Positions 7,921 to 59,948 of a stretch of 64,000 bases of DNA are shown piece by piece; positions within the stretch are counted from its first letter, which is position 1, and every line of letters starts with the position of its first letter. The stretch is from Candidatus Pacearchaeota archaeon (GTDB lineage: Archaea; Nanobdellota; Nanobdellia; Pacearchaeales; GW2011-AR1). The translations under genes and the position numbers were made by a program. The notes under the pieces are model-generated. The model worked only from the letters and a program-made list of their open reading frames with translations. It searched no databases and was not told where the DNA came from. The DNA is taken from NCBI GenBank assembly GCA_016866995.1, contig VGKQ01000002.1, positions 221 to 64,220 of the forward strand. Direction: 5' to 3'.

Positions 7921-7956
7921 AGCTAAAACTTATAAGCAAAAACCTAAGGTTTTTGC
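7921..7956 (+). repeat. 36-nt repeat containing a perfect 9-bp hairpin GCAAAAACC-TAA-GGTTTTTGC (copy 1)
   Basis: 35/36 identical to 8447..8482. Starts 3 nt after the stop of 7487..7918. Confidence 0.85.
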
Positions 7957-8446: not shown

Positions 8447-8482
8447 AGCTAAAACTTATAAGCAAAAACCGAAGGTTTTTGC
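8447..8482 (+). repeat. 36-nt hairpin repeat (copy 2)
   Basis: agctaaaacttataagcaaaaaccGaaggtttttgc. The single difference falls in the loop. Confidence 0.85.
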
Positions 8483-23093: not shown

Positions 23094-23381
23094 ATGGGCT
23101 TAGCTGAATTTTTTATTTTTTTAGTAATCTTTGGGATTGTAGGCTATGCTATAAATAAAATCTGGGATTTTAATCCATATGAATACTGGGAAAAGTTTGG
23201 GGTTATAAGTATTATTATCTCGTTAGTTATTGCTTATCTTCCAACAATTTTCAATCCTCAGGATGTTGTTAATAATGTTGATAGGATAATGAATTGGTTT
23301 GTTGCGATTTTGCCCGGCACGATCATAGGAGATTTGGCAGGGCAAATTATCTCAAAAATTACCGGGGGAGGTAGAAGATGA
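23094..23381 (+). CDS. small membrane protein (3 TM)
   Basis: 95 aa. 4-nt overlap with the next gene. Confidence 0.55.
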   Translation: MGLAEFFIFLVIFGIVGYAINKIWDFNPYEYWEKFGVISIIISLVIAYLPTIFNPQDVVNNVDRIMNWFVAILPGTIIGDLAGQIISKITGGGRR

Positions 23382-24673
23382 TATTTATGGGTGCTACATA
23401 CCAGAGCGATTCCCCTTACTTTGAAGATAAATTAATTAAAGCAAGAAATAAACTAAAAGAGTTTCCTACAATAGCAAGCGTGGTCGATAATTTTAATTTG
23501 GCAAATAGAGAGAACCATACAGAGAATATTATATTAAATTTATTGAGTGCAGCAGTTTCAGATGCTTTTTTAGAAAATAAACCAAATGAACGATGTAATC
23601 AAACACTAAAACTAATTGAGCTCTCCTTGAAAGAATTATTGGATAAATTGTCAAGAAGTAAGAAAAATAATCTTATTGTTAAATTAAAATCATTTGGAGA
23701 TAGTCATCGTGATACAATAAATGAAATTGATTTTTTGATAGAATTGAAACAAAATTCTAATGTATCTGACATCGAATATGAAAATGAAACTTTGGGAAAC
23801 CATGATTTCAATGTTTATATTGGTGGAGAAGAATTTAACATAGAACAAACTTGTTTGGGAAGAGGGAAAATACAAAAGATGGTAGAGCGGGCTTTTAATA
23901 TCGCTTCAAAAGAAATTATAGAAAGAATCCCAAAAAGGATATTCCTAAAGATAGATGTAGACACGGATAGAATTTTGAAAGAAAGGGATAATAGTTTTCA
24001 TGAAATAAAAACACTTTTGATGAAAGACTATGATAATTTAGAAAAAATGTTATTGATAGATTTAAATGGTGGTTGTAGAATTGATAATAATCTGGGATCT
24101 TCCAATCAATCTTTATACGAAATAAAAGATTTATATGATGATTATGATGAATTTGGTCAAAGACTTAAAAAATTATTAGATAGCCGTGAAGGCGTTGATT
24201 ACTTAAAGAGTAAGAAAGTTTTTGAATTAACAAAATGTTCTATAACTCATTTCATTATCGGACCAGGCAAATTTGGCAGTGTCAGTATTCACTCACAATG
24301 TATATGGCCTTCAAGAGCAGAATCATTAAGAAAAGGCTCATTAATAAATCAATTAAAGAGAAAGATAAAAGAAAAAATTGAGGGGAGACAATTAGAGGGA
24401 AAGACAAATCCTATTATCGCTGTTAGATTTGAAGATTTTATATTTATGAATTATAGTTCGGAAGATGATGTTTGGTGGGAAGAGAATTTTAACGAGCTAA
24501 AGAACATTATTGAGGGTGTTTTTAGAGATATCAATAACAAAGAGATTTTAGGGGTCTTGTTGTATGAGAACACAATTAAAAAATCAAGATTTGTAAAAAA
24601 TCCAAATATCAAAGTTAGAGAGAATATAATAGATAAAATTGGCTTATTAAAAAATGAATCAACAACAACTTAA
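23378..24673 (+). CDS. uncharacterised 431-aa protein with a weak Pol-beta NTase-like signature
   Basis: KSFGDSHRDTINEIDFLIEL (G[DS]-x-ExD spacing as in hG[GS]x9-13[DE]h[DE]h), followed by HDFNVYIGGEEFNIEQ. The assignment is speculative. Confidence 0.6.
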   Translation: MIFMGATYQSDSPYFEDKLIKARNKLKEFPTIASVVDNFNLANRENHTENIILNLLSAAVSDAFLENKPNERCNQTLKLIELSLKELLDKLSRSKKNNLIVKLKSFGDSHRDTINEIDFLIELKQNSNVSDIEYENETLGNHDFNVYIGGEEFNIEQTCLGRGKIQKMVERAFNIASKEIIERIPKRIFLKIDVDTDRILKERDNSFHEIKTLLMKDYDNLEKMLLIDLNGGCRIDNNLGSSNQSLYEIKDLYDDYDEFGQRLKKLLDSREGVDYLKSKKVFELTKCSITHFIIGPGKFGSVSIHSQCIWPSRAESLRKGSLINQLKRKIKEKIEGRQLEGKTNPIIAVRFEDFIFMNYSSEDDVWWEENFNELKNIIEGVFRDINNKEILGVLLYENTIKKSRFVKNPNIKVRENIIDKIGLLKNESTTT

Positions 24674-25613
24674 AGAAAATGCTGAACAGATTAAGATATG
24701 TAAGAAGTGGCTAGGCACTGCTAAGTCAGATTTTGAGGCTGCAAAAAATCTTTACGAACATGAAAATTATCCTCAATCAGTCTTTAGCTTACAACAATCT
24801 ATTGAAAAAACCATAAAAGCATATGGTATTTTTATGGGTGTAAAGGAAAGTGATTTAAAAAATAAATTTAGACATGATACTTTAAAAATTTATGAGCATC
24901 ATTTAACTGGGTTTTTAGAAAAATCAAAGAGTTTTAGCGAGACACTAAAGGCACATCCTGAACTTAAGAGTATTCCAATGCTAAACGAGTTAGATTATGA
25001 TGATTTAGCAATAGAGATGAGTGATGCAAAAGATGAATTTCAGAACATAAAATCTAGTGCGGAGGATATGACAAAAACTACCCGAAAGATTGAAAGTTGC
25101 ATTAACAAAGCAATTAAGCTTTTCGAAAATGAAAAGATTTCTATTAAAGGATTATCCAAAATTAAACTGTCTGACAGGCAATTTAATGAAATAAAAAGAT
25201 TTATGTTCGAAAACCTTAATGAAATTTCTAAGCTAAAAAAACAAGAACTTCCAGAATTGAAAGAGATCGAGAAATTAACTCCGAGCTACTTTCAAAGGCT
25301 TTTTAGTGAGACCTTTAGCTATTTAATCAGGGCATTGTCGGTTTATAGTGCATTGCTTTACTTGAATCTTATTGTTTATAATAAAGTTTCTTCCACAAGA
25401 TATCCTGAGAACAAAACCCCTCAACAGATATATAACATCAATTCTCCAATTATCAAGAGATTTAGGGATATCCAGAAGATTCATCAAGATTGCTTCTTGA
25501 AAATTGAAGATATTCTTAATGAACAAGAAAAATTAACTAAAAAATATCAAAATGAAACAACCAATCCAACAAACTCACAAGCTCGCCCTCCTACTAAGTC
25601 GGGCTCGCTGTGA
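24654..25613 (+). CDS. long HEPN-domain protein with a large insertion
   Basis: N-terminal WLGTAKSDFEAAKNLYEHENYPQSVFSLQQSIEKTIKAYG, FRHD, and a distal STRYPE. 20-nt overlap with the upstream gene. Confidence 0.6.
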   Translation: MNQQQLKENAEQIKICKKWLGTAKSDFEAAKNLYEHENYPQSVFSLQQSIEKTIKAYGIFMGVKESDLKNKFRHDTLKIYEHHLTGFLEKSKSFSETLKAHPELKSIPMLNELDYDDLAIEMSDAKDEFQNIKSSAEDMTKTTRKIESCINKAIKLFENEKISIKGLSKIKLSDRQFNEIKRFMFENLNEISKLKKQELPELKEIEKLTPSYFQRLFSETFSYLIRALSVYSALLYLNLIVYNKVSSTRYPENKTPQQIYNINSPIIKRFRDIQKIHQDCFLKIEDILNEQEKLTKKYQNETTNPTNSQARPPTKSGSL

Positions 25614-25626
25614 TGCCGGGCTCGCT
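25581..25626 (-). repeat. GC-rich boundary motif (inverted orientation), GCGAGCCCG ×2 plus GGAGGGCGAGC
   Basis: gctcgccctcctactaagtcgggctcgct...gggctcgct. About 30 nt are shared with 27322..27349. Confidence 0.75.
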
Positions 25627-25629
25627 AAA

Positions 25630-25995
25630 TTACTTAATCCTCCTATCAGGATATATGTATCTGGAGTATTTTTCTTTTGCAAGATCATCCCTAAGTGAAA
25701 TATATCCTCTTGGACTCTGTCTACCATCACCATCTCTTATAAGCGCAAATCCTCCATAATCTAAAGTTAATTCTCCTGCTGTTTCTAAAGAGCTAGGAAC
25801 AACTCCTCTTAAAACAAGAAAAAATCTAAAACGTTTACCTTGTTTTCTTTCATGAAAAGTGTCATACCACCAAGGAGAAGAAGATAGTGCCATCCCAGTT
25901 AACTCACATATCTTTGCATCATCTTCTGGCTTTTCACAAACAATGCAAATTTCTCTGTGCTCTCTTCTATCAGCTCCCCTATACTCCTTAGACAT
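25630..25995 (-). CDS. hypothetical protein
   Basis: 121-aa ORF with R/G/W/H-rich composition unlike host genes. Confidence 0.55.
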   Translation of the reverse strand: MSKEYRGADRREHREICIVCEKPEDDAKICELTGMALSSSPWWYDTFHERKQGKRFRFFLVLRGVVPSSLETAGELTLDYGGFALIRDGDGRQSPRGYISLRDDLAKEKYSRYIYPDRRIK

Positions 25996-26226
25996 AAAAG
26001 TTTTTTGAATAACTAGTTTTTAATAATTATTGTTCTGAGATATATGCAATGAGATAAGCTGGAAAAATCTATAAAGCAATAAGATTTAATTATGGTGAGA
26101 GATAAGGATGAATTGATAGAGGGATAGATTTATAAACATCATATTATAATATATTATAATGTCAGAAAAGTAAACTACCCCCTCAGGGTGTAGATAGTTG
26201 TGAACAACTATCCTTTTCTGAACCAA

Positions 26227-26278
26227 AGAAAATCTTATAAGGATTTTCTGGGCCCCAAAATTCCATAAAAGAATTTTG
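26227..26278 (+). repeat. double-hairpin miniature element (copy A)
   Basis: AGAAAATC-ttataag-GATTTTCT ggg cccc CAAAATTC-cataaaa-GAATTTTG. Homologous to 53660..53713. Confidence 0.75.
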
Positions 26279-26320
26279 CGGCATCCAAAAGTTCAAAACA
26301 AAACACAAAAACTTTTTGAT

Positions 26321-27070
26321 ATGGAAACTATAGTGAAACAGGCGAGGGAAGTGGGAACATCTGCAGGAGTTCTTCTTCCCAGAAAATGGCTGAACAAGCA
26401 GGTAGTTGTGACTCTTTTTAATCCCTCAGGAGAAAAAATTCTTCAGGACATTATTCCGTGCTTGTTTAAGCATAATTTAAATGAAGACATCAGGGGAATT
26501 TATTTGTTCGGCAGCTATGCAAGAGGGGATTTTGATTTTAACAGCGACATAGATATTCTGATTCTAACTGAAAAAACAGACAAGCTGATTAATTGCAATA
26601 ATTACGAAATTCTCATGGTTTCAGAAGACTCTTTTTCAAAAAACCTGCCAAATAATCTTAATTATTTAAGCCTTTTAAAAGAAATAAAGATAATTTTTAA
26701 TAAGGAATTAATTGAAAAATACAGAAATAAAAAATATAAATTTAATGTTAAGAAATATCTGCCTGAAATTGAGAGAATTGCTGGAATAAACAGAGATACA
26801 GTAAAAACCTGCCAGGAGAATAATATGAATGTTCCTGACGGCATTGTTTATTCAATTGTTTTAAGATTAAGAGAATTATACATGATAAAATGCCTTGTTT
26901 CCGGCAAAAACTACTATAAAAAAGATTTCCTGAAACTGATTGAAGAAAAAATTTATTCAGCTTATCTCAGAATAAAAAGAAATGAAAAAGAATTAAACAA
27001 TCTTTCTCCAGATGAGTTGCTGAAAATACTGGAATTATCTGAAAAATGGCTAAAAGAGCTAAAAGAATAG
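26321..27070 (+). CDS. AbrB/SpoVT-like domain fused to an MNT-type nucleotidyltransferase
   Basis: METIVKQAREVGTSAGVLLPRKWL... and LFGSYARGDFDFNSDIDILIL. Start trimmed to the ATG at 26321. Confidence 0.75.
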   Translation: METIVKQAREVGTSAGVLLPRKWLNKQVVVTLFNPSGEKILQDIIPCLFKHNLNEDIRGIYLFGSYARGDFDFNSDIDILILTEKTDKLINCNNYEILMVSEDSFSKNLPNNLNYLSLLKEIKIIFNKELIEKYRNKKYKFNVKKYLPEIERIAGINRDTVKTCQENNMNVPDGIVYSIVLRLRELYMIKCLVSGKNYYKKDFLKLIEEKIYSAYLRIKRNEKELNNLSPDELLKILELSEKWLKELKE

Positions 27071-27309
27071 AAAAAGGAATTGAAAGCCTGAAAAAAGAGA
27101 TTGAAGAGCATCTTGATAAAATTGAAAAAGACATTCTTGAAAAAAATATTGACAGAGGGAGATATCACATAAAAGAAGTTGATAAAAGCCTGCTAAAAGC
27201 ACTGGAACTCAAAATTAAGATTCTTGGAATTGAAAATGATAATTCTGTCTCAGTTTACAGGGAAAGATTAGAAAAATTAAGAAAGAGTCTTGGATTAAGT
27301 GAGTTTTGA
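27046..27309 (+). CDS. helical/coiled-coil small protein overlapping the MNT gene end
   Basis: 87 aa, K/E-rich, 25-nt overlap. Confidence 0.45.
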   Translation: MAKRAKRIEKGIESLKKEIEEHLDKIEKDILEKNIDRGRYHIKEVDKSLLKALELKIKILGIENDNSVSVYRERLEKLRKSLGLSEF

Positions 27310-27321
27310 TAAATCCTCAAA

Positions 27322-27349
27322 GCTCGCCCTCCTCTAAGTCGGGCTCGTT
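27322..27349 (-). repeat. GC-rich boundary motif (inverted orientation)
   Basis: gctcgccctcctctaagtcgggctcgtt. Confidence 0.75.
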
Positions 27350-27414
27350 GCTAATGATAAAGCTGAGGAGAAAATAAAATCATATACAGAGCTCAGTCGC
27401 CACCCCAATGCTCT

Positions 27415-28056
27415 TTATTCATATTCATAGTCAGATATCCCCCGAACTCGTATCTGACTATCATGCAGACCAGGGTAATCACCAATAAGCCCGGCCCTGC
27501 ATCCATGATGGCAAAGACAGCCAAATGCTACTTGCCTCACAAATGGTTTTTTTTGCATATCTGAAAGCCAGGTAGGCATTTCAGTTATTCCCGCTTCTTT
27601 CAAAAAGTTTCCGTAAGCTTCTGCTTGTTTTCCAAAAGCATATATTGTTATCGGGTTGTCTGCAAAGCTGTATGTAGGAATTGGGTTTCCTAAAAGCCTG
27701 ACACAATCAGATAACGATTCTTCAACTTGTTCATCACTTAGATAGTATTCTATTTTATTTCTATGGCAGGCAGTTGCTTCTTTGGCATTTTTAATTACTG
27801 GAGATTTTTTAGTTAAGAATATTCCTTTGTCTGGAACATATAGGACTCCTTCTCTTACCCAATTTCCATTTCTAGAAATCCCTGCATTTGTTCCTTCATG
27901 AAGTCTGAACATTGCATTTTCTTCTAGAGAAATAATTTTGTATTCCTCTCTCCTTAAAATTTCTTTACCCTCATCAAATGGTGCGGTTACATAAGCAGAA
28001 AGAATACAATAGGAAATATGAAAAATTCTTGCATCAAGAATTGATCGCTCAGTCAT
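27415..28056 (-). CDS. hypothetical 213-aa protein, coupled to the Nudix gene
   Basis: 4-nt overlap with 28053..28466. No motif recognised. Confidence 0.6.
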   Translation of the reverse strand: MTERSILDARIFHISYCILSAYVTAPFDEGKEILRREEYKIISLEENAMFRLHEGTNAGISRNGNWVREGVLYVPDKGIFLTKKSPVIKNAKEATACHRNKIEYYLSDEQVEESLSDCVRLLGNPIPTYSFADNPITIYAFGKQAEAYGNFLKEAGITEMPTWLSDMQKKPFVRQVAFGCLCHHGCRAGLIGDYPGLHDSQIRVRGISDYEYE

Positions 28057-28466
28057 TTTAAAAGCCCTCTTTCTATAAGCGAAGGAATTATTCTTTCTTT
28101 AAGGAGAGGTGCAAGAGGGATTTTGTATTTTTTATAATCTTCACAACTGATCCAATAATATTTGTCTACAGAATCATACTGATTTAATTTAGGGTTTCCT
28201 TTTAGCTCAACAATATAACACCGCAAGCTTAAACCCCTTGAATCATTTACTAATCCCAAAAAAGTTGCAAAATACTTAGGATTTCTGATGCTGCATCCTA
28301 TCTCCTCTCGGACTTCCCTTTGCAAACACCTTATGGGTGTCTCGCCAGGCTCTATTTTTCCACCAAGGGTGATATAATCCTCTAAACCTCTTTTGTGCAC
28401 AACTAAAAGTTTGTTGTGTCTTATACATAATGCACCTGCTTTCTTTATTCTATTTTTGGTTCTCAT
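28053..28466 (-). CDS. Nudix hydrolase
   Basis: Nudix box GGKIEPGETPIRCLQREVREEIG. Confidence 0.85.
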   Translation of the reverse strand: MRTKNRIKKAGALCIRHNKLLVVHKRGLEDYITLGGKIEPGETPIRCLQREVREEIGCSIRNPKYFATFLGLVNDSRGLSLRCYIVELKGNPKLNQYDSVDKYYWISCEDYKKYKIPLAPLLKERIIPSLIERGLLK

Positions 28467-28561
28467 ATTAAACTGTATGATTCAGAAGATTTTAATTATC
28501 TCTACCCCAAAAAAGGGTAGTTAATAGAAAGATTAATAAGTCTGATCAATCTATTAAAAAT

Positions 28562-29275
28562 ATGATAGAAGAAACCCTCCAAGAGGTTGGATTAAACAGA
28601 AGAGAAAGCATTTGTTACATTGCATTATTAGAGCTTGGTTCTTCAAAGGTTGGCAATATTTTGAAGAAGACAGGAATTCCCTCTTCAAAGATATATGAGA
28701 TACTTGACAAGCTAATAAAAAGAGGTTTAGTTTCGCATATAATAAAAAGAAATGTTAAATATTACCAGGCTTCTAACCCTAAAGTATTAATTAGCTATAT
28801 TGAAGAGAAAAAGAAGAAAGTTGAAGAAATAGTCCCAGAATTAATCTTAAAACAAAAACTCTCAAAAAAACAAAGCGCCGAACTGTATGAAGGCCAAAAA
28901 GCAATATTCTCTTTGCTTACAAATCTTATAAAAGATGCAAGACCAAAGGAGCTGTACCTTGTATTTTCGATTAATGAAGAAAATAAAAATGAACAGGCAA
29001 ATTTATTTTTTAGAAATATTACTTTAAGAAGAAAAGAAAAAAGATTAGATGTGAGGCTGTTAAGGAATATTAAGTATTATAAAAAAGAAAAACACACCAA
29101 GACAAAAGTTAGGCATACTAATTTTTCTTTACCTCAAGGGATAACTATATTTAGGAATTATATCATTCTTCTTACCTGGACTGATTATCCAATAGCAATT
29201 AAGATAGAAAGCGATATTGTTTCTAACCAAATGAGGGACTTTTTCTTGGATTTGTGGAAAATCGCGAGGAGATAA
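28562..29275 (+). CDS. TrmB-family transcriptional regulator
   Basis: LQEVGLNRRESICYIALLELGSSKVGNILKKTGIPSSKIYEILDKLIKRGLV. Confidence 0.7.
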   Translation: MIEETLQEVGLNRRESICYIALLELGSSKVGNILKKTGIPSSKIYEILDKLIKRGLVSHIIKRNVKYYQASNPKVLISYIEEKKKKVEEIVPELILKQKLSKKQSAELYEGQKAIFSLLTNLIKDARPKELYLVFSINEENKNEQANLFFRNITLRRKEKRLDVRLLRNIKYYKKEKHTKTKVRHTNFSLPQGITIFRNYIILLTWTDYPIAIKIESDIVSNQMRDFFLDLWKIARR

Positions 29276-38023: not shown

Positions 38024-38109
38024 GCAAGACAAATCATTTATGATTTTTAGTTCATCAGAAACCTTATGTTTCTGAGTGCATTCAGAAATTTACATTTCTG
38101 ATGTCTTGC
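38024..38109. other. multi-hairpin element in the rps9-rpl13 spacer (outer stem GCAAGACA/TGTCTTGC enclosing TCAGAAAY hairpins)
   Basis: TCAGAAAC-cttat-GTTTCTGA (38055-38075), TCAGAAAT-ttac-ATTTCTGA (38082-38101), AAATCAT/ATGATTT (38031-38046). Confidence 0.7.
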
Positions 38110-38133: not shown

Positions 38134-38538
38134 TTATTTCAGCATTTTAGAGAGCTCTTCAAGGCTCATCAAATCCTTGTTTTCTCTTCCTGATTTAATT
38201 TTTTTCTCATTCTCAAACTCTTTTGGAACTCCCTTATAGCATCTTATTCTTTTAAAAGCTTCTTCTCCTCTTCCCATCTTGTAAGAAAGCATTCCTCTTA
38301 TTGTTCTTTTCAAAATTTGTTCAGGCATGCTTGGATACTTGACTTTCTTGAATTTTCTCTTCTCAAGATAGCCTTGAATTATGCTTTTTCTGTTTCCAGA
38401 AACAACTGCTTTTTCAGAATTTACAATAATAACTTTTTTTCCAAGCAAAGCTTGTTTCGCAGAAAAACTTGCCAGCCTTCCAAGTATAGCATTTTCTGCG
38501 TCAATTACAATCTGATTTTTTTCTTCTGTTTTTTCCAT
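38134..38538 (-). CDS. rpl13: 50S ribosomal protein L13 (uL13)
   Basis: IDAENAILGRLASFSAKQALLGKKVIIVNSEKAVVSG. Confidence 0.9.
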   Translation of the reverse strand: MEKTEEKNQIVIDAENAILGRLASFSAKQALLGKKVIIVNSEKAVVSGNRKSIIQGYLEKRKFKKVKYPSMPEQILKRTIRGMLSYKMGRGEEAFKRIRCYKGVPKEFENEKKIKSGRENKDLMSLEELSKMLK

Positions 38539-48781: not shown

Positions 48782-48789
48782 ATATCTTA

Positions 48790-48852
48790 CAAATCACACC
48801 GCACATCTGCAGATGTGCGCCCAAACCCGCAGGTTTGGGTTCGTGTGATTTG
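48790..48852. other. GC-rich 63-nt element predicted to form a three-way junction
   Basis: Outer stem CAAATCACAC/GTGTGATTTG (48790-99/48843-52). Inner hairpins CGCACATC-tgca-GATGTGCG (48800-19) and CCCAAACC-cgca-GGTTTGGG (48820-39). Confidence 0.8.
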
Positions 48853-48869
48853 TCTGTAATTTAATTTTA

Positions 48870-53542: not shown

Positions 53543-53640
53543 GCGGGAGTGCCGGAGCGGTCAAACGGGAGGCGCTCAAGATTTATAATAAGAAACGCCT
53601 TGGCTTAGTGCCTGCAGAGGTTCGATTCCTCTCTCCCGCA
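53543..53640 (+). tRNA. tRNA-Leu(CAA) with a 14-nt intron at the canonical 37/38 position
   Basis: Acceptor GCGGGAG/CTCCCGC+A73, anticodon stem AGGCG/CGCCT, loop CTCAAG[intron]A, long variable arm, T-arm AGAGG-TTCGATT-CCTCT. Confidence 0.85.
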
Positions 53641-53659
53641 TCTACAAACTCCGCAGCCA

Positions 53660-53713
53660 AGAAAATCTCAGAATGATTTTCTGGGTGTTCAGAAATCCAT
53701 AAAAGATTTCTGA
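53660..53713 (+). repeat. double-hairpin miniature element (copy B) inserted in the tRNA-Leu trailer
   Basis: AGAAAATC-tcagaat-GATTTTCT ggg tgt TCAGAAATC-cataaaa-GATTTCTGA. Confidence 0.75.
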
Positions 53714-53815
53714 CAAGAGGAGCTTCACAGCATCAGCGAGAAAGCCCGCATCAATAGAGTTTAGTAGAAATAAAAAAACAAAATAATTTAAATAACCAAA
53801 ATAATACATAATAAC

Positions 53816-54328: not shown

Positions 54329-54525
54329 TCAAACTGCTAATAATAACTAACAACTAATAATATCGCTCTCAACTTTTAATTAATCATTATATCCTGCAGA
54401 TTACTAGAATAAACCAAGGAAACAAATTTTATTATTATTTACTCGAGAATTAAATTGTTAATTAAATTAATCGCAATGAAAACTCTATTAATCAATATCA
54501 CCATAATTAAGTTAAACATTATAAA

Positions 54526-54670
54526 TTAAGTTAAAAAATAAACATGAATTAATTATAAATTAAATAATGTGCCTATAATGTCAGAAAAATTAAGTTAAAA
54601 AATAAACATGAATTAATTATAAATTAAATAATGTGCCTATAATGTCAGAAAAATTAAGTTAAAAAATATA
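54526..54670 (+). repeat. 64-bp tandem direct repeat, about 2.2 copies
   Basis: ttaagttaaaaaataaacatgaattaattataaattaaataatgtgcctataatgtcagaaaaa repeated at 54526 and 54590, with a partial copy at 54654. Confidence 0.9.
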
Positions 54671-59763: not shown

Positions 59764-59846
59764 GCGCTGGTAGCATAGTGGTTAGTGTGTCTGCCTTCCA
59801 TATTTGAAGCAAGCAGACGACCCGGGTTCGAGTCCCGGCCGGCGCA
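59764..59846 (+). tRNA. tRNA-Gly(TCC) with an 11-nt intron at 37/38
   Basis: Acceptor GCGCTGG/CCGGCGC, anticodon stem TCTGC/GCAGA, loop CTTCCA[tatttgaagca]A, T-arm CCGGG-TTCGAGT-CCCGG. Confidence 0.85.
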
Positions 59847-59948
59847 TCTTTGTTTTCCGCAGCCAAGGAGCACCGCAATCAGATGAGGATGCCCGCAGCA
59901 AGAGAAAATCAAAGATAGTCAAATGCGTTGGAGGCGCATATAAATAAA

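Follow-up and report, generated by a model that had tools for sequence, protein, structure and literature searches.

The two double hairpins of the window (the whole 64-kb stretch of DNA that was analysed) belong to a large family of tiny palindromic repeats that is apparently new to the literature. Copies A and B are best explained as members of an interspersed family of hairpin doublets of ~57–60 nt, found in the Pacearchaeota and Woesearchaeota (DPANN), and this family is probably a non-autonomous, miniature mobile element that resembles REP/BIME/REPIN elements in its behaviour. It is the fold that is conserved across the members, not the loop or the spacing, and a unit that depends on this fold, running from foot to foot, has been gained at new sites without target duplication. 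A literature search found no paper on such repeats in DPANN.

Sequence and fold of copies A and B

Each copy has a core of 59 bases that folds into two abutting hairpins, and each hairpin is built from a 2-bp G:C foot, one mismatch and an A/U-rich stem of 8–9 bp. With the mismatch counted, the stems are 11 bp long, and the hairpins measure 27–30 nt. The features of the two cores are as follows.

26223–26281: core of copy A
26223–26252, plus strand: copy A hairpin 1, CCAAAGAAAATC - TTATAAG - GATTTTCTGGG, with a 2-bp C:G foot, an A bulge or A.G mismatch and an 8-bp stem
26253–26281, plus strand: copy A hairpin 2, CCCCAAAATTC - CATAAAA - GAATTTTGCGG, the third position being a C.C mismatch
26256–26278: inner stem of copy A hairpin 2, CAAAATTC/GAATTTTG
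53657–53715: core of copy B
53657–53685, plus strand: copy B hairpin 1, CCAAGAAAATC - TCAGAAT - GATTTTCTGGG
53686–53715, plus strand: copy B hairpin 2, TG(T)TCAGAAATC - CATAAAA - GATTTCTGACA
53689–53713: inner stem of copy B hairpin 2, (T)CAGAAATC/GATTTCTG(A)

An earlier note on this DNA had described a shorter element at the same places. Its hairpin 1, AGAAAATC/GATTTTCT with a 7-nt loop followed by GGG, is present as claimed at 26227–26252 and 53660–53685, and its hairpin 2 does have a CATAAAA loop in both copies, with stems that differ and are fully complementary. The position was therefore right but the extent too short, as both hairpins gain a mismatch and a 2-bp foot: the CC 5' of AAGAAAATC pairs with the GG of what had been called a GGG spacer, across an A.G mismatch or an A bulge. 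The same note had read flanking CCAA(A)G-like words as a target-site duplication, a reading that had to be abandoned because the left word, CC(A)AAG, is the conserved hairpin-1 foot in every family member. The right flank is variable across the family, the cleanest insertions have no duplication, and the word placed at 53714–53718 in fact reads CAAGA, with ACAAG at 53713–53717.

Scored with the family covariance model, whole copies A and B reach 65.4 and 45.3 bits, respectively, both being part of the seed alignment. Both fold ~4 sd better than shuffled sequences on both strands, and the observed count of the hairpin-1 pattern was reached in 0 of 100 dinucleotide shuffles. The B-type variant, with a TGY spacer and a TCAGAAAT stem, is also present 3' of a tRNA-Arg in L154 (L-numbers are the labels of the compared loci, or contigs).

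Distribution and membership of the family

Exact matches to its proteins (NCBI MBM32336xx, a 70-kb contig) assign the window to a Candidatus Pacearchaeota MAG. When the GTDB representative genomes were scanned for hairpin 1, true relatives were found only in one Pacearchaeota genome (two contigs) and one Woesearchaeota genome, the remaining matches being coding or chance. Among the matches listed by a metagenome scan, at least 52 distinct relatives with the same two-hairpin layout were found on low-GC archaeal contigs, and the genes on family contigs are archaeal (MCM, aCPSF1, L15e, eIF-2B and diphthamide synthase). The consensus reads CC(A)AAGAAAATC - loop - GATTTTCTGGG for hairpin 1 and, directly adjoining, CCCC(A/G)AAAAnn - loop - nnTTTT(T/C)GCGG for hairpin 2, with A/T-rich stems built on GAAAA/TTTTC. 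Hairpin 1 is near-invariant across contigs of 27–44% GC, a conservation that partly reflects retrieval, since most members were retrieved by demanding an exact hairpin 1. REPs usually show less conservation than this between genera, and the difference could be a sign of a conserved partner in the host.

Over the 64-kb window, the covariance model finds copies A and B only. Elsewhere, up to 3–4 copies were counted per 8-kb locus (L015/L016/L134), and one 784-kb contig carries at least three exact matches. Viral contigs gave four pattern matches, none of which is the element. At the gathering threshold of Rfam, only tRNAs and 5S rRNA pass in the window, with no family at the copies; in a permissive run the best sub-threshold matches at the copies had E-values of at least 0.27, far under gathering scores.

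A pair of TCAGAAA hairpins near 38.05 kb had been put forward as further members. With the family covariance model this pair scores 15.2 bits (E 0.14) and was left outside the family, although it shares with it the stem theme CAGAAA...TTTCTG, which is ~2–3x enriched in the window.

38055–38101: hairpin pair, non-member, TCAGAAAC/GTTTCTGA and TCAGAAAT/ATTTCTGA, between an ORF at 38134–38538 and the S9 gene (both minus strand)

Conservation of the fold

The stem substitutions were compared in a 40-sequence alignment, in which hairpin 1 is invariant because the search had required an exact match. In hairpin 2, 9 of 10 pairs are altered on both sides, and pairing is kept in 93.5% of cells as against 86% in shuffles. 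Its covariation score is 0.221, compared with 0.091 when shuffled, a value reached by 0 of 500 shuffles, and all of the hairpin-2 covariation measures collapse when the partners are slid against each other. The covariance model also recovered 13 more copies with a variant hairpin 1 in the same loci, with stems such as AGAAAAAC/GTTTTTCT, AGAAACTC/GAGTTTCT, AGAAATTC/GAATTTCT and GGAAATC/GATTTCC, among others. In these variants, found without a search pattern, pairing is kept in 102 of 104 pairs. The earlier proposal of a miniature structured repeat with compensated stem changes was thus reinforced, as further copies exist and the covariation strengthens when homologs are added; none of the outcomes that had been named as counting against it was seen, extra copies having been found and covariation supported.

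Hairpin 1 has loops of 4–10 nt, and hairpin 2 has loops of 3–10 nt. As the loops vary in this way, the single-stranded fold is the conserved feature, and a duplex DNA site of fixed spacing is ruled out. Mismatches of the G.T and A.C types occur at similar frequency (14:11), so neither strand stands out as the RNA strand. The reverse strand of many members scores nearly as high as the forward strand (e.g. 70 versus 60 bits in L032), since hairpin 2 is often a reverse-complement form of hairpin 1, which makes the unit in these members an inverted doublet. This form of hairpin 2 (CCCAGAAAA...TTTTCTTGG) is found in many members and has diverged in others, including copy A.

Gain of the doublet at new sites

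The clearest case of mobility is an endonuclease-IV-like gene with two independent insertions, found in three contigs (L096, L132 and L060) with 58–77% amino acid identity. At one site a 57-nt core is present in frame in L096 only, the site being empty in L132, and at a second site a 60-nt core is present in frame in L132 and L060 only, the site being empty in L096. The limits of both inserts are exact, with CC of the hairpin-1 foot at one end and GG of the hairpin-2 foot at the other, and no flank is duplicated. In a Pacearchaeota reference genome, a 142-bp repeat occurs twice with 98.6% identity, and its L016 copy contains a 57-nt doublet that is absent from the L015 copy; the doublet sits between caatg and tccttgac, with an ambiguity of just 2 nt relative to L015. 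Doublets are also present or absent within the loops of other hairpins (L118/L113 versus L030/L033, and L056/L113 versus L040), and the tRNA-Leu and tRNA-Gly trailers of the window differ by a doublet. The earlier note had proposed a check for insertion polymorphism, and presence/absence differences at homologous sites show that the unit inserts. No polymorphism was seen in the window's own population, as both element regions are identical in contigs with identical proteins (several JGI and Logan samples). Contigs of one metagenome terminate at the element, as would be expected of a repeat.

The 5' flank of the elements is only A/T-rich, with no fixed word, and C is never found at position –1. 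Flanking direct repeats of at least 10 nt are absent from the members except L032, where the repeat is a tRNA 3' end. Complementary flanks of at least 7 bp were found in 28% of members compared with 8% of mismatched controls, an excess that fits a preference for palindrome loops. An outer stem with a three-way junction was considered as a universal part of the element and rejected, as it occurs in only about a quarter of the members.

Further copies that appear to be in frame were seen in L023/L122 (tail of a BRO-N protein), L127 (a lysine-rich tail) and L134 (a loop of a membrane protein). The endonuclease-IV-like protein (L096 779–910, L132 1987–2112, and L060) tolerates 19–20 repeat-encoded residues at two different surface positions. 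The proteomes of DPANN MAGs may contain many such repeat-encoded inserts, which could confuse alignments.

The tRNA trailers and the site of copy B

Copy B lies 3' of a tRNA-Leu gene that is adjoined by a 5S rRNA gene (Rfam, ARAGORN), and the window contains a related site that has no doublet.

53543–53640, plus strand: tRNA-Leu(CAA), intron-bearing; copy B begins 17 nt 3' of its end
53641–53752, plus strand: block 3' of tRNA-Leu, bounded by the direct repeat CCCGCATC (53635–53642 and 53745–53752) and containing copy B
59764–59846: tRNA-Gly(TCC), intron-bearing, with the doublet-free paralogous site downstream
59856–59871, plus strand: paralogous site without the doublet, TCCGCAGCCAAG followed by GAGC

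The sequence TCCGCAGCCAAGGAGC is uninterrupted at 59856–59871, as had been reported, and its 12 + 4 bases flank 58 extra bases downstream of tRNA-Leu. Without these 58 bases, the Leu trailer aligns to the Gly trailer over ~55 nt. The two sites are diverged paralogs, so an insertion in one and a deletion in the other are indistinguishable there. The claim that copy B interrupts a tRNA trailer holds to the extent that the doublet splits the shared trailer, but a remnant duplication of the tRNA-Leu 3' end bounds the trailer, which is in its own right a hairpin block. The tRNA-Leu 3' end forms the first of the two CCCGCATC repeats. In L152, the closest relative (88% identity in the PIN protein), the hairpin block at the corresponding position has a 23-nt copy of this 3' end as its terminus, and L032 is arranged likewise, with a repeat of 22 nt. 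On this evidence, the trailer of copy B is an old hairpin block at a tRNA-linked site.

Several features of these trailers were observed in addition. The duplicated tRNA-Leu 3' end (22–23 nt) lies beyond an all-hairpin block of 165–190 nt in L032 (1540–1760, minus strand) and L152 (2210–2440), with only CCCGCATC retained in the window (53635–53752), and the arrangement is like that of a miniature insert between a pair of att sites. The trailers of L152 and L154 also contain the T-arm in an inverted copy (GGATTTGAAC). The window trailers at 59847–59915 and 53641–53760 have in common ~55 nt of GC-rich sequence (TCCGCAGCCAAGGAGC...GCCCGCA.CAA.AGA) in a genome of 32% GC. The Gly trailer ends in a motif like the 3' end of tRNA-Leu and unlike that of tRNA-Gly, which suggests that the block was copied between tRNA loci. 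In both tRNA genes (53543–53640 and 59764–59846) the intron adjoins the anticodon; ARAGORN misread tRNA-Gly as having a 4-base anticodon and missed tRNA-Leu in default mode, and Rfam detects both.

The composite unit containing copy A

Copy A is part of a longer structure that precedes a nucleotidyltransferase gene, starting with ATGTCAGAAAAGTAAACT and ending with TTTTTGAT directly before the ATG at 26321.

26159–26320, plus strand: composite unit of 162 nt containing copy A; outer stem TCAGAAAAG/CTTTTCTGA around two hairpins, followed by copy A and lastly by a terminal hairpin

Copy A had been read as a tiny mobile or structured RNA element, and it is a member of the doublet family, but it is no lone insertion, being embedded in this 162-nt unit with homologs elsewhere. 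Homologous units (L040, L030, L056, L113 and L118) have different stems and extra nested doublets. In units from other metagenomes the linkers and the doublet of copy A are kept, and the stems of the other hairpins are wholly replaced.

The repeated unit from ATGTCAGAAAAGTAAACT to TTTTTGAT was seen in the window and in L040, L030, L056, L058, L113, L115 and L118, and a second ATGTCAGAAAAGTAAACT in L058 (6211) stands 5' of another set of long hairpins. Units of the 26159 type may be ncRNA genes, promoter/leader cassettes or composite repeats. The surroundings of copy A (23378–29275) encode a HEPN protein, a nucleotidyltransferase (MNT-like), a NUDIX protein and TrmB, and, beyond these, DUF2683, ParE and another nucleotidyltransferase (Pfam), and look like a defence/toxin–antitoxin cluster.

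Proposed mode of movement

The doublet would be recognized and moved as a single-stranded DNA hairpin by an enzyme acting in trans, for which a Y1/HUH transposase of the IS200/RAYT type (compare TnpA of IS200/IS605) could serve as a model. Transcripts would then include the inserted hairpins in their 5' leaders, intercistronic regions or tRNA trailers, and the hairpins may there be either tolerated or co-opted. Leader transcription or co-option is hinted at by the bias toward divergent promoter-bearing spacers and by the frequent position 20–25 nt before a start codon. A phmmer search for a Y1 transposase, using an IS608 TnpA against ~2,800 ORFs of the window and ~0.6 Mb of archaeal loci, matched an unrelated bacterial contig only, and no recurrent neighbour gene was found by the elements beyond orthologous loci.

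Gene context and alternative explanations

The elements are mostly intergenic, occasionally lie in frame within genes and nest in the loops of other palindromes, and the genes downstream of them are unrelated housekeeping genes. Of the members with two called neighbours, 11 have divergent neighbours, 6 lie in a co-directional and 3 in an anti-directional tandem, and 1 has convergent neighbours. No promoter motif was found at a fixed distance upstream of the elements.

The principal alternative, which is considered unlikely, is that the doublet is a conserved cis-acting RNA module of 5' leaders and intercistronic regions, to which a nuclease or RNA-binding protein conserved in DPANN would bind, with consequences for the stability, processing or translation of mRNAs, and that it was spread by selection for this function. 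The enrichment of the elements in divergent spacers, with the 3' neighbour directed away in 19 cases versus 7, speaks for such a module. In several unrelated subfamilies the core ends 20–25 nt before the ATG with GGAGGT in between, and whole leader units through to the ATG are common to different genes (L036/L042/L116). The stem sequence itself is kept beyond what pairing requires, over a wide GC range, and orthologous genes keep the element with compensated changes, as in a cyclophilin gene (72% amino acid identity) with a compensated change in hairpin 2. Constraint at the level of the host, or gene conversion, would account for this retention before orthologous genes of diverged genomes more readily than a selfish insert in decay. 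Against an RNA module, copies are found in either orientation with respect to the adjoining genes, as well as within a tRNA trailer and, antisense, within ORFs, and the mismatch ratio given above (14:11) shows no strand acting as the RNA strand. The exact foot-to-foot insertions at new sites, two of them in one gene, require a process at the DNA level, and no Rfam relative was found. A function in RNA would nevertheless be compatible with mobility, and the two readings are not exclusive.

A bidirectional transcription terminator appears much less probable. The 3' arms do carry T-runs on both strands, with two T4–T5 runs within the hairpins per strand, and some copies lie just 3' of stop codons or between convergent genes (e.g. 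L016 after aCPSF1, and L074). Of the 21 members with two neighbours, however, a single one lies between convergent genes and 11 lie between divergent genes, a setting in which no transcript ends; copies are found within genes too. Archaeal termination requires oligo-T and is not known to need a conserved hairpin sequence. The terminator reading was rejected on gene context.

Still less credence was given to a reading as two palindromic operators, each a duplex DNA site for a dimeric transcription factor, which would account for two dyad-symmetric sites with centres ~29–30 bp apart, for their presence in promoter-bearing spacers and for the conserved stem sequence. Spacing between half-sites of 4–10 bp in hairpin 1 and 3–10 bp in hairpin 2 would not be tolerated by a dimer on duplex DNA, the hairpin-2 half-sites vary freely while staying complementary, and copies occur in ORFs and tRNA trailers; this kind of operator was rejected on the variable loop length. 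Least probable of all is that the doublet represents one of the known archaeal classes of small RNA gene (C/D box or H/ACA), co-transcribed with a tRNA, a reading suggested by the position of copy B directly 3' of a tRNA and by the tRNA–sRNA dicistrons known from Nanoarchaeum, but one that failed the box and size criteria: copy A has neither C (RUGAUGA) nor D (CUGA) boxes, H/ACA pockets would need longer hairpins, and a consistent ACA is lacking, the Rfam matches are sub-threshold and chance, and most copies are away from tRNAs.

Comparison with known repeats

With a mobile doublet as the preferred reading, the closest likeness is to bacterial REP, BIME and REPIN elements. As in these, the family consists of short imperfect palindromes (20–40 nt in REPs, 27–30 nt here), which are mainly extragenic, show compensated stem variation and form clusters. 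In REPINs the replicating unit is made of two REPs in inverted orientation; the doublets are close inverted pairs in many members, and hairpin 2 has diverged in others. The doublets are gained without target duplication (L096 and L132/L060 versus the empty sites), often into small host palindromes and at times in frame, adding ~20 amino acids. Bacterial REP families have been described as inserting into small palindromes and as forming in-frame intragenic dimers of 20–30 amino acids, closely spaced inverted dimers and clusters (PMC3733652). There are also differences. Whereas REPs end in a GTAG or CGTC tag, the feet here are CC(A)AAG...CTGGG and CCCC...GCGG. REPs are mobilized by RAYT Y1 transposases, whose genes often have REPs on their flanks, and none was found among the ~2,800 ORFs of the window and loci. 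REPs are present in tens to hundreds of copies per genome; copy density here seems modest, with 2 in the 64-kb window. The present family is archaeal, its hairpin 1 is conserved across orders instead of within a single genus, and it shows a bias to the 5' regions of genes. REPINs have been reported as "not detected in archaea" (10.1101/2021.07.10.451892), and the doublets are the closest archaeal counterpart so far to the bacterial REP/REPIN elements.

More tentatively, the family may represent a first REPIN-like system in the Archaea, in which a doublet kept nearly unchanged across the Pacearchaeota and Woesearchaeota would owe its movement, in the form of single-stranded DNA, to an enzyme other than a recognizable Y1 transposase and would have been co-opted as a portable 5'-leader module ~20–25 nt before start codons; this fuller scenario is possible but doubtful.

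Among archaeal elements, a resemblance is seen to PATEs (palindrome-associated transposable elements), the haloarchaeal derivatives of IS200/IS605, which are likewise non-autonomous and defined by terminal hairpins. Elements of the IS200/IS605 group move as single strands without target duplication, and PATEs, with a length of a few hundred bases, have ends like those of the IS1341/IS605 copies resident in the genome. The present unit, in contrast, consists of two hairpins alone, and no parent IS, TnpA or conserved target tetranucleotide was seen in the loci examined. The term PATE and the haloarchaeal examples are taken from PMC3119063. The Rickettsia palindromic elements (RPE) insert in frame into protein-coding genes (PMC3733652), and retained in-frame palindromic inserts are also found here (L096, L132/L060, L134 and L023/L122), but RPE-1 is longer and bacterial, and the present family is mostly intergenic. 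MITEs are similarly small, non-autonomous, repeated and polymorphic for insertion, but they have terminal inverted repeats matching an IS and target-site duplications, neither of which was seen here. Integron attC sites were rejected, as there are no R''/R' boxes (RYYYAAC...GTTRRRY) and no cassette-array arrangement.

The genomes of DPANN archaea are tiny and streamlined, and their non-coding DNA is almost unstudied. There should be a mobilizing activity behind the family that can be searched for, and the repeat accounts for contig breaks and for short in-frame inserts in the proteins of DPANN MAGs. Its covariance model provides a compact marker for lineage tracking and for the study of element co-option into gene leaders.

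Other hairpins and repeats in the window

A GC-rich structure between two minus-strand genes at 48786–48856 has an 11-bp outer stem around two abutting 8-bp tetraloop hairpins, with a z-score of –7.4 on both strands. It has the architecture of a doublet nested in a palindrome but is unrelated in sequence, and neither an Rfam match nor a copy in the compared loci was found. A perfect 64-bp tandem repeat of 2.3 copies occupies the AT-rich spacer 5' of tRNA-Arg at 54523–54668, and its units contain TATAATGTCAGAAAAAT, which resembles the start of the 26159 unit. Finally, two copies of AGCTAAAACTTATAA, each followed by the hairpin GCAAAAACC-NAA-GGTTTTTGC, are found 526 bp apart at 7921–7956 and 8447–8482, and each lies 3' of a short plus-strand ORF.
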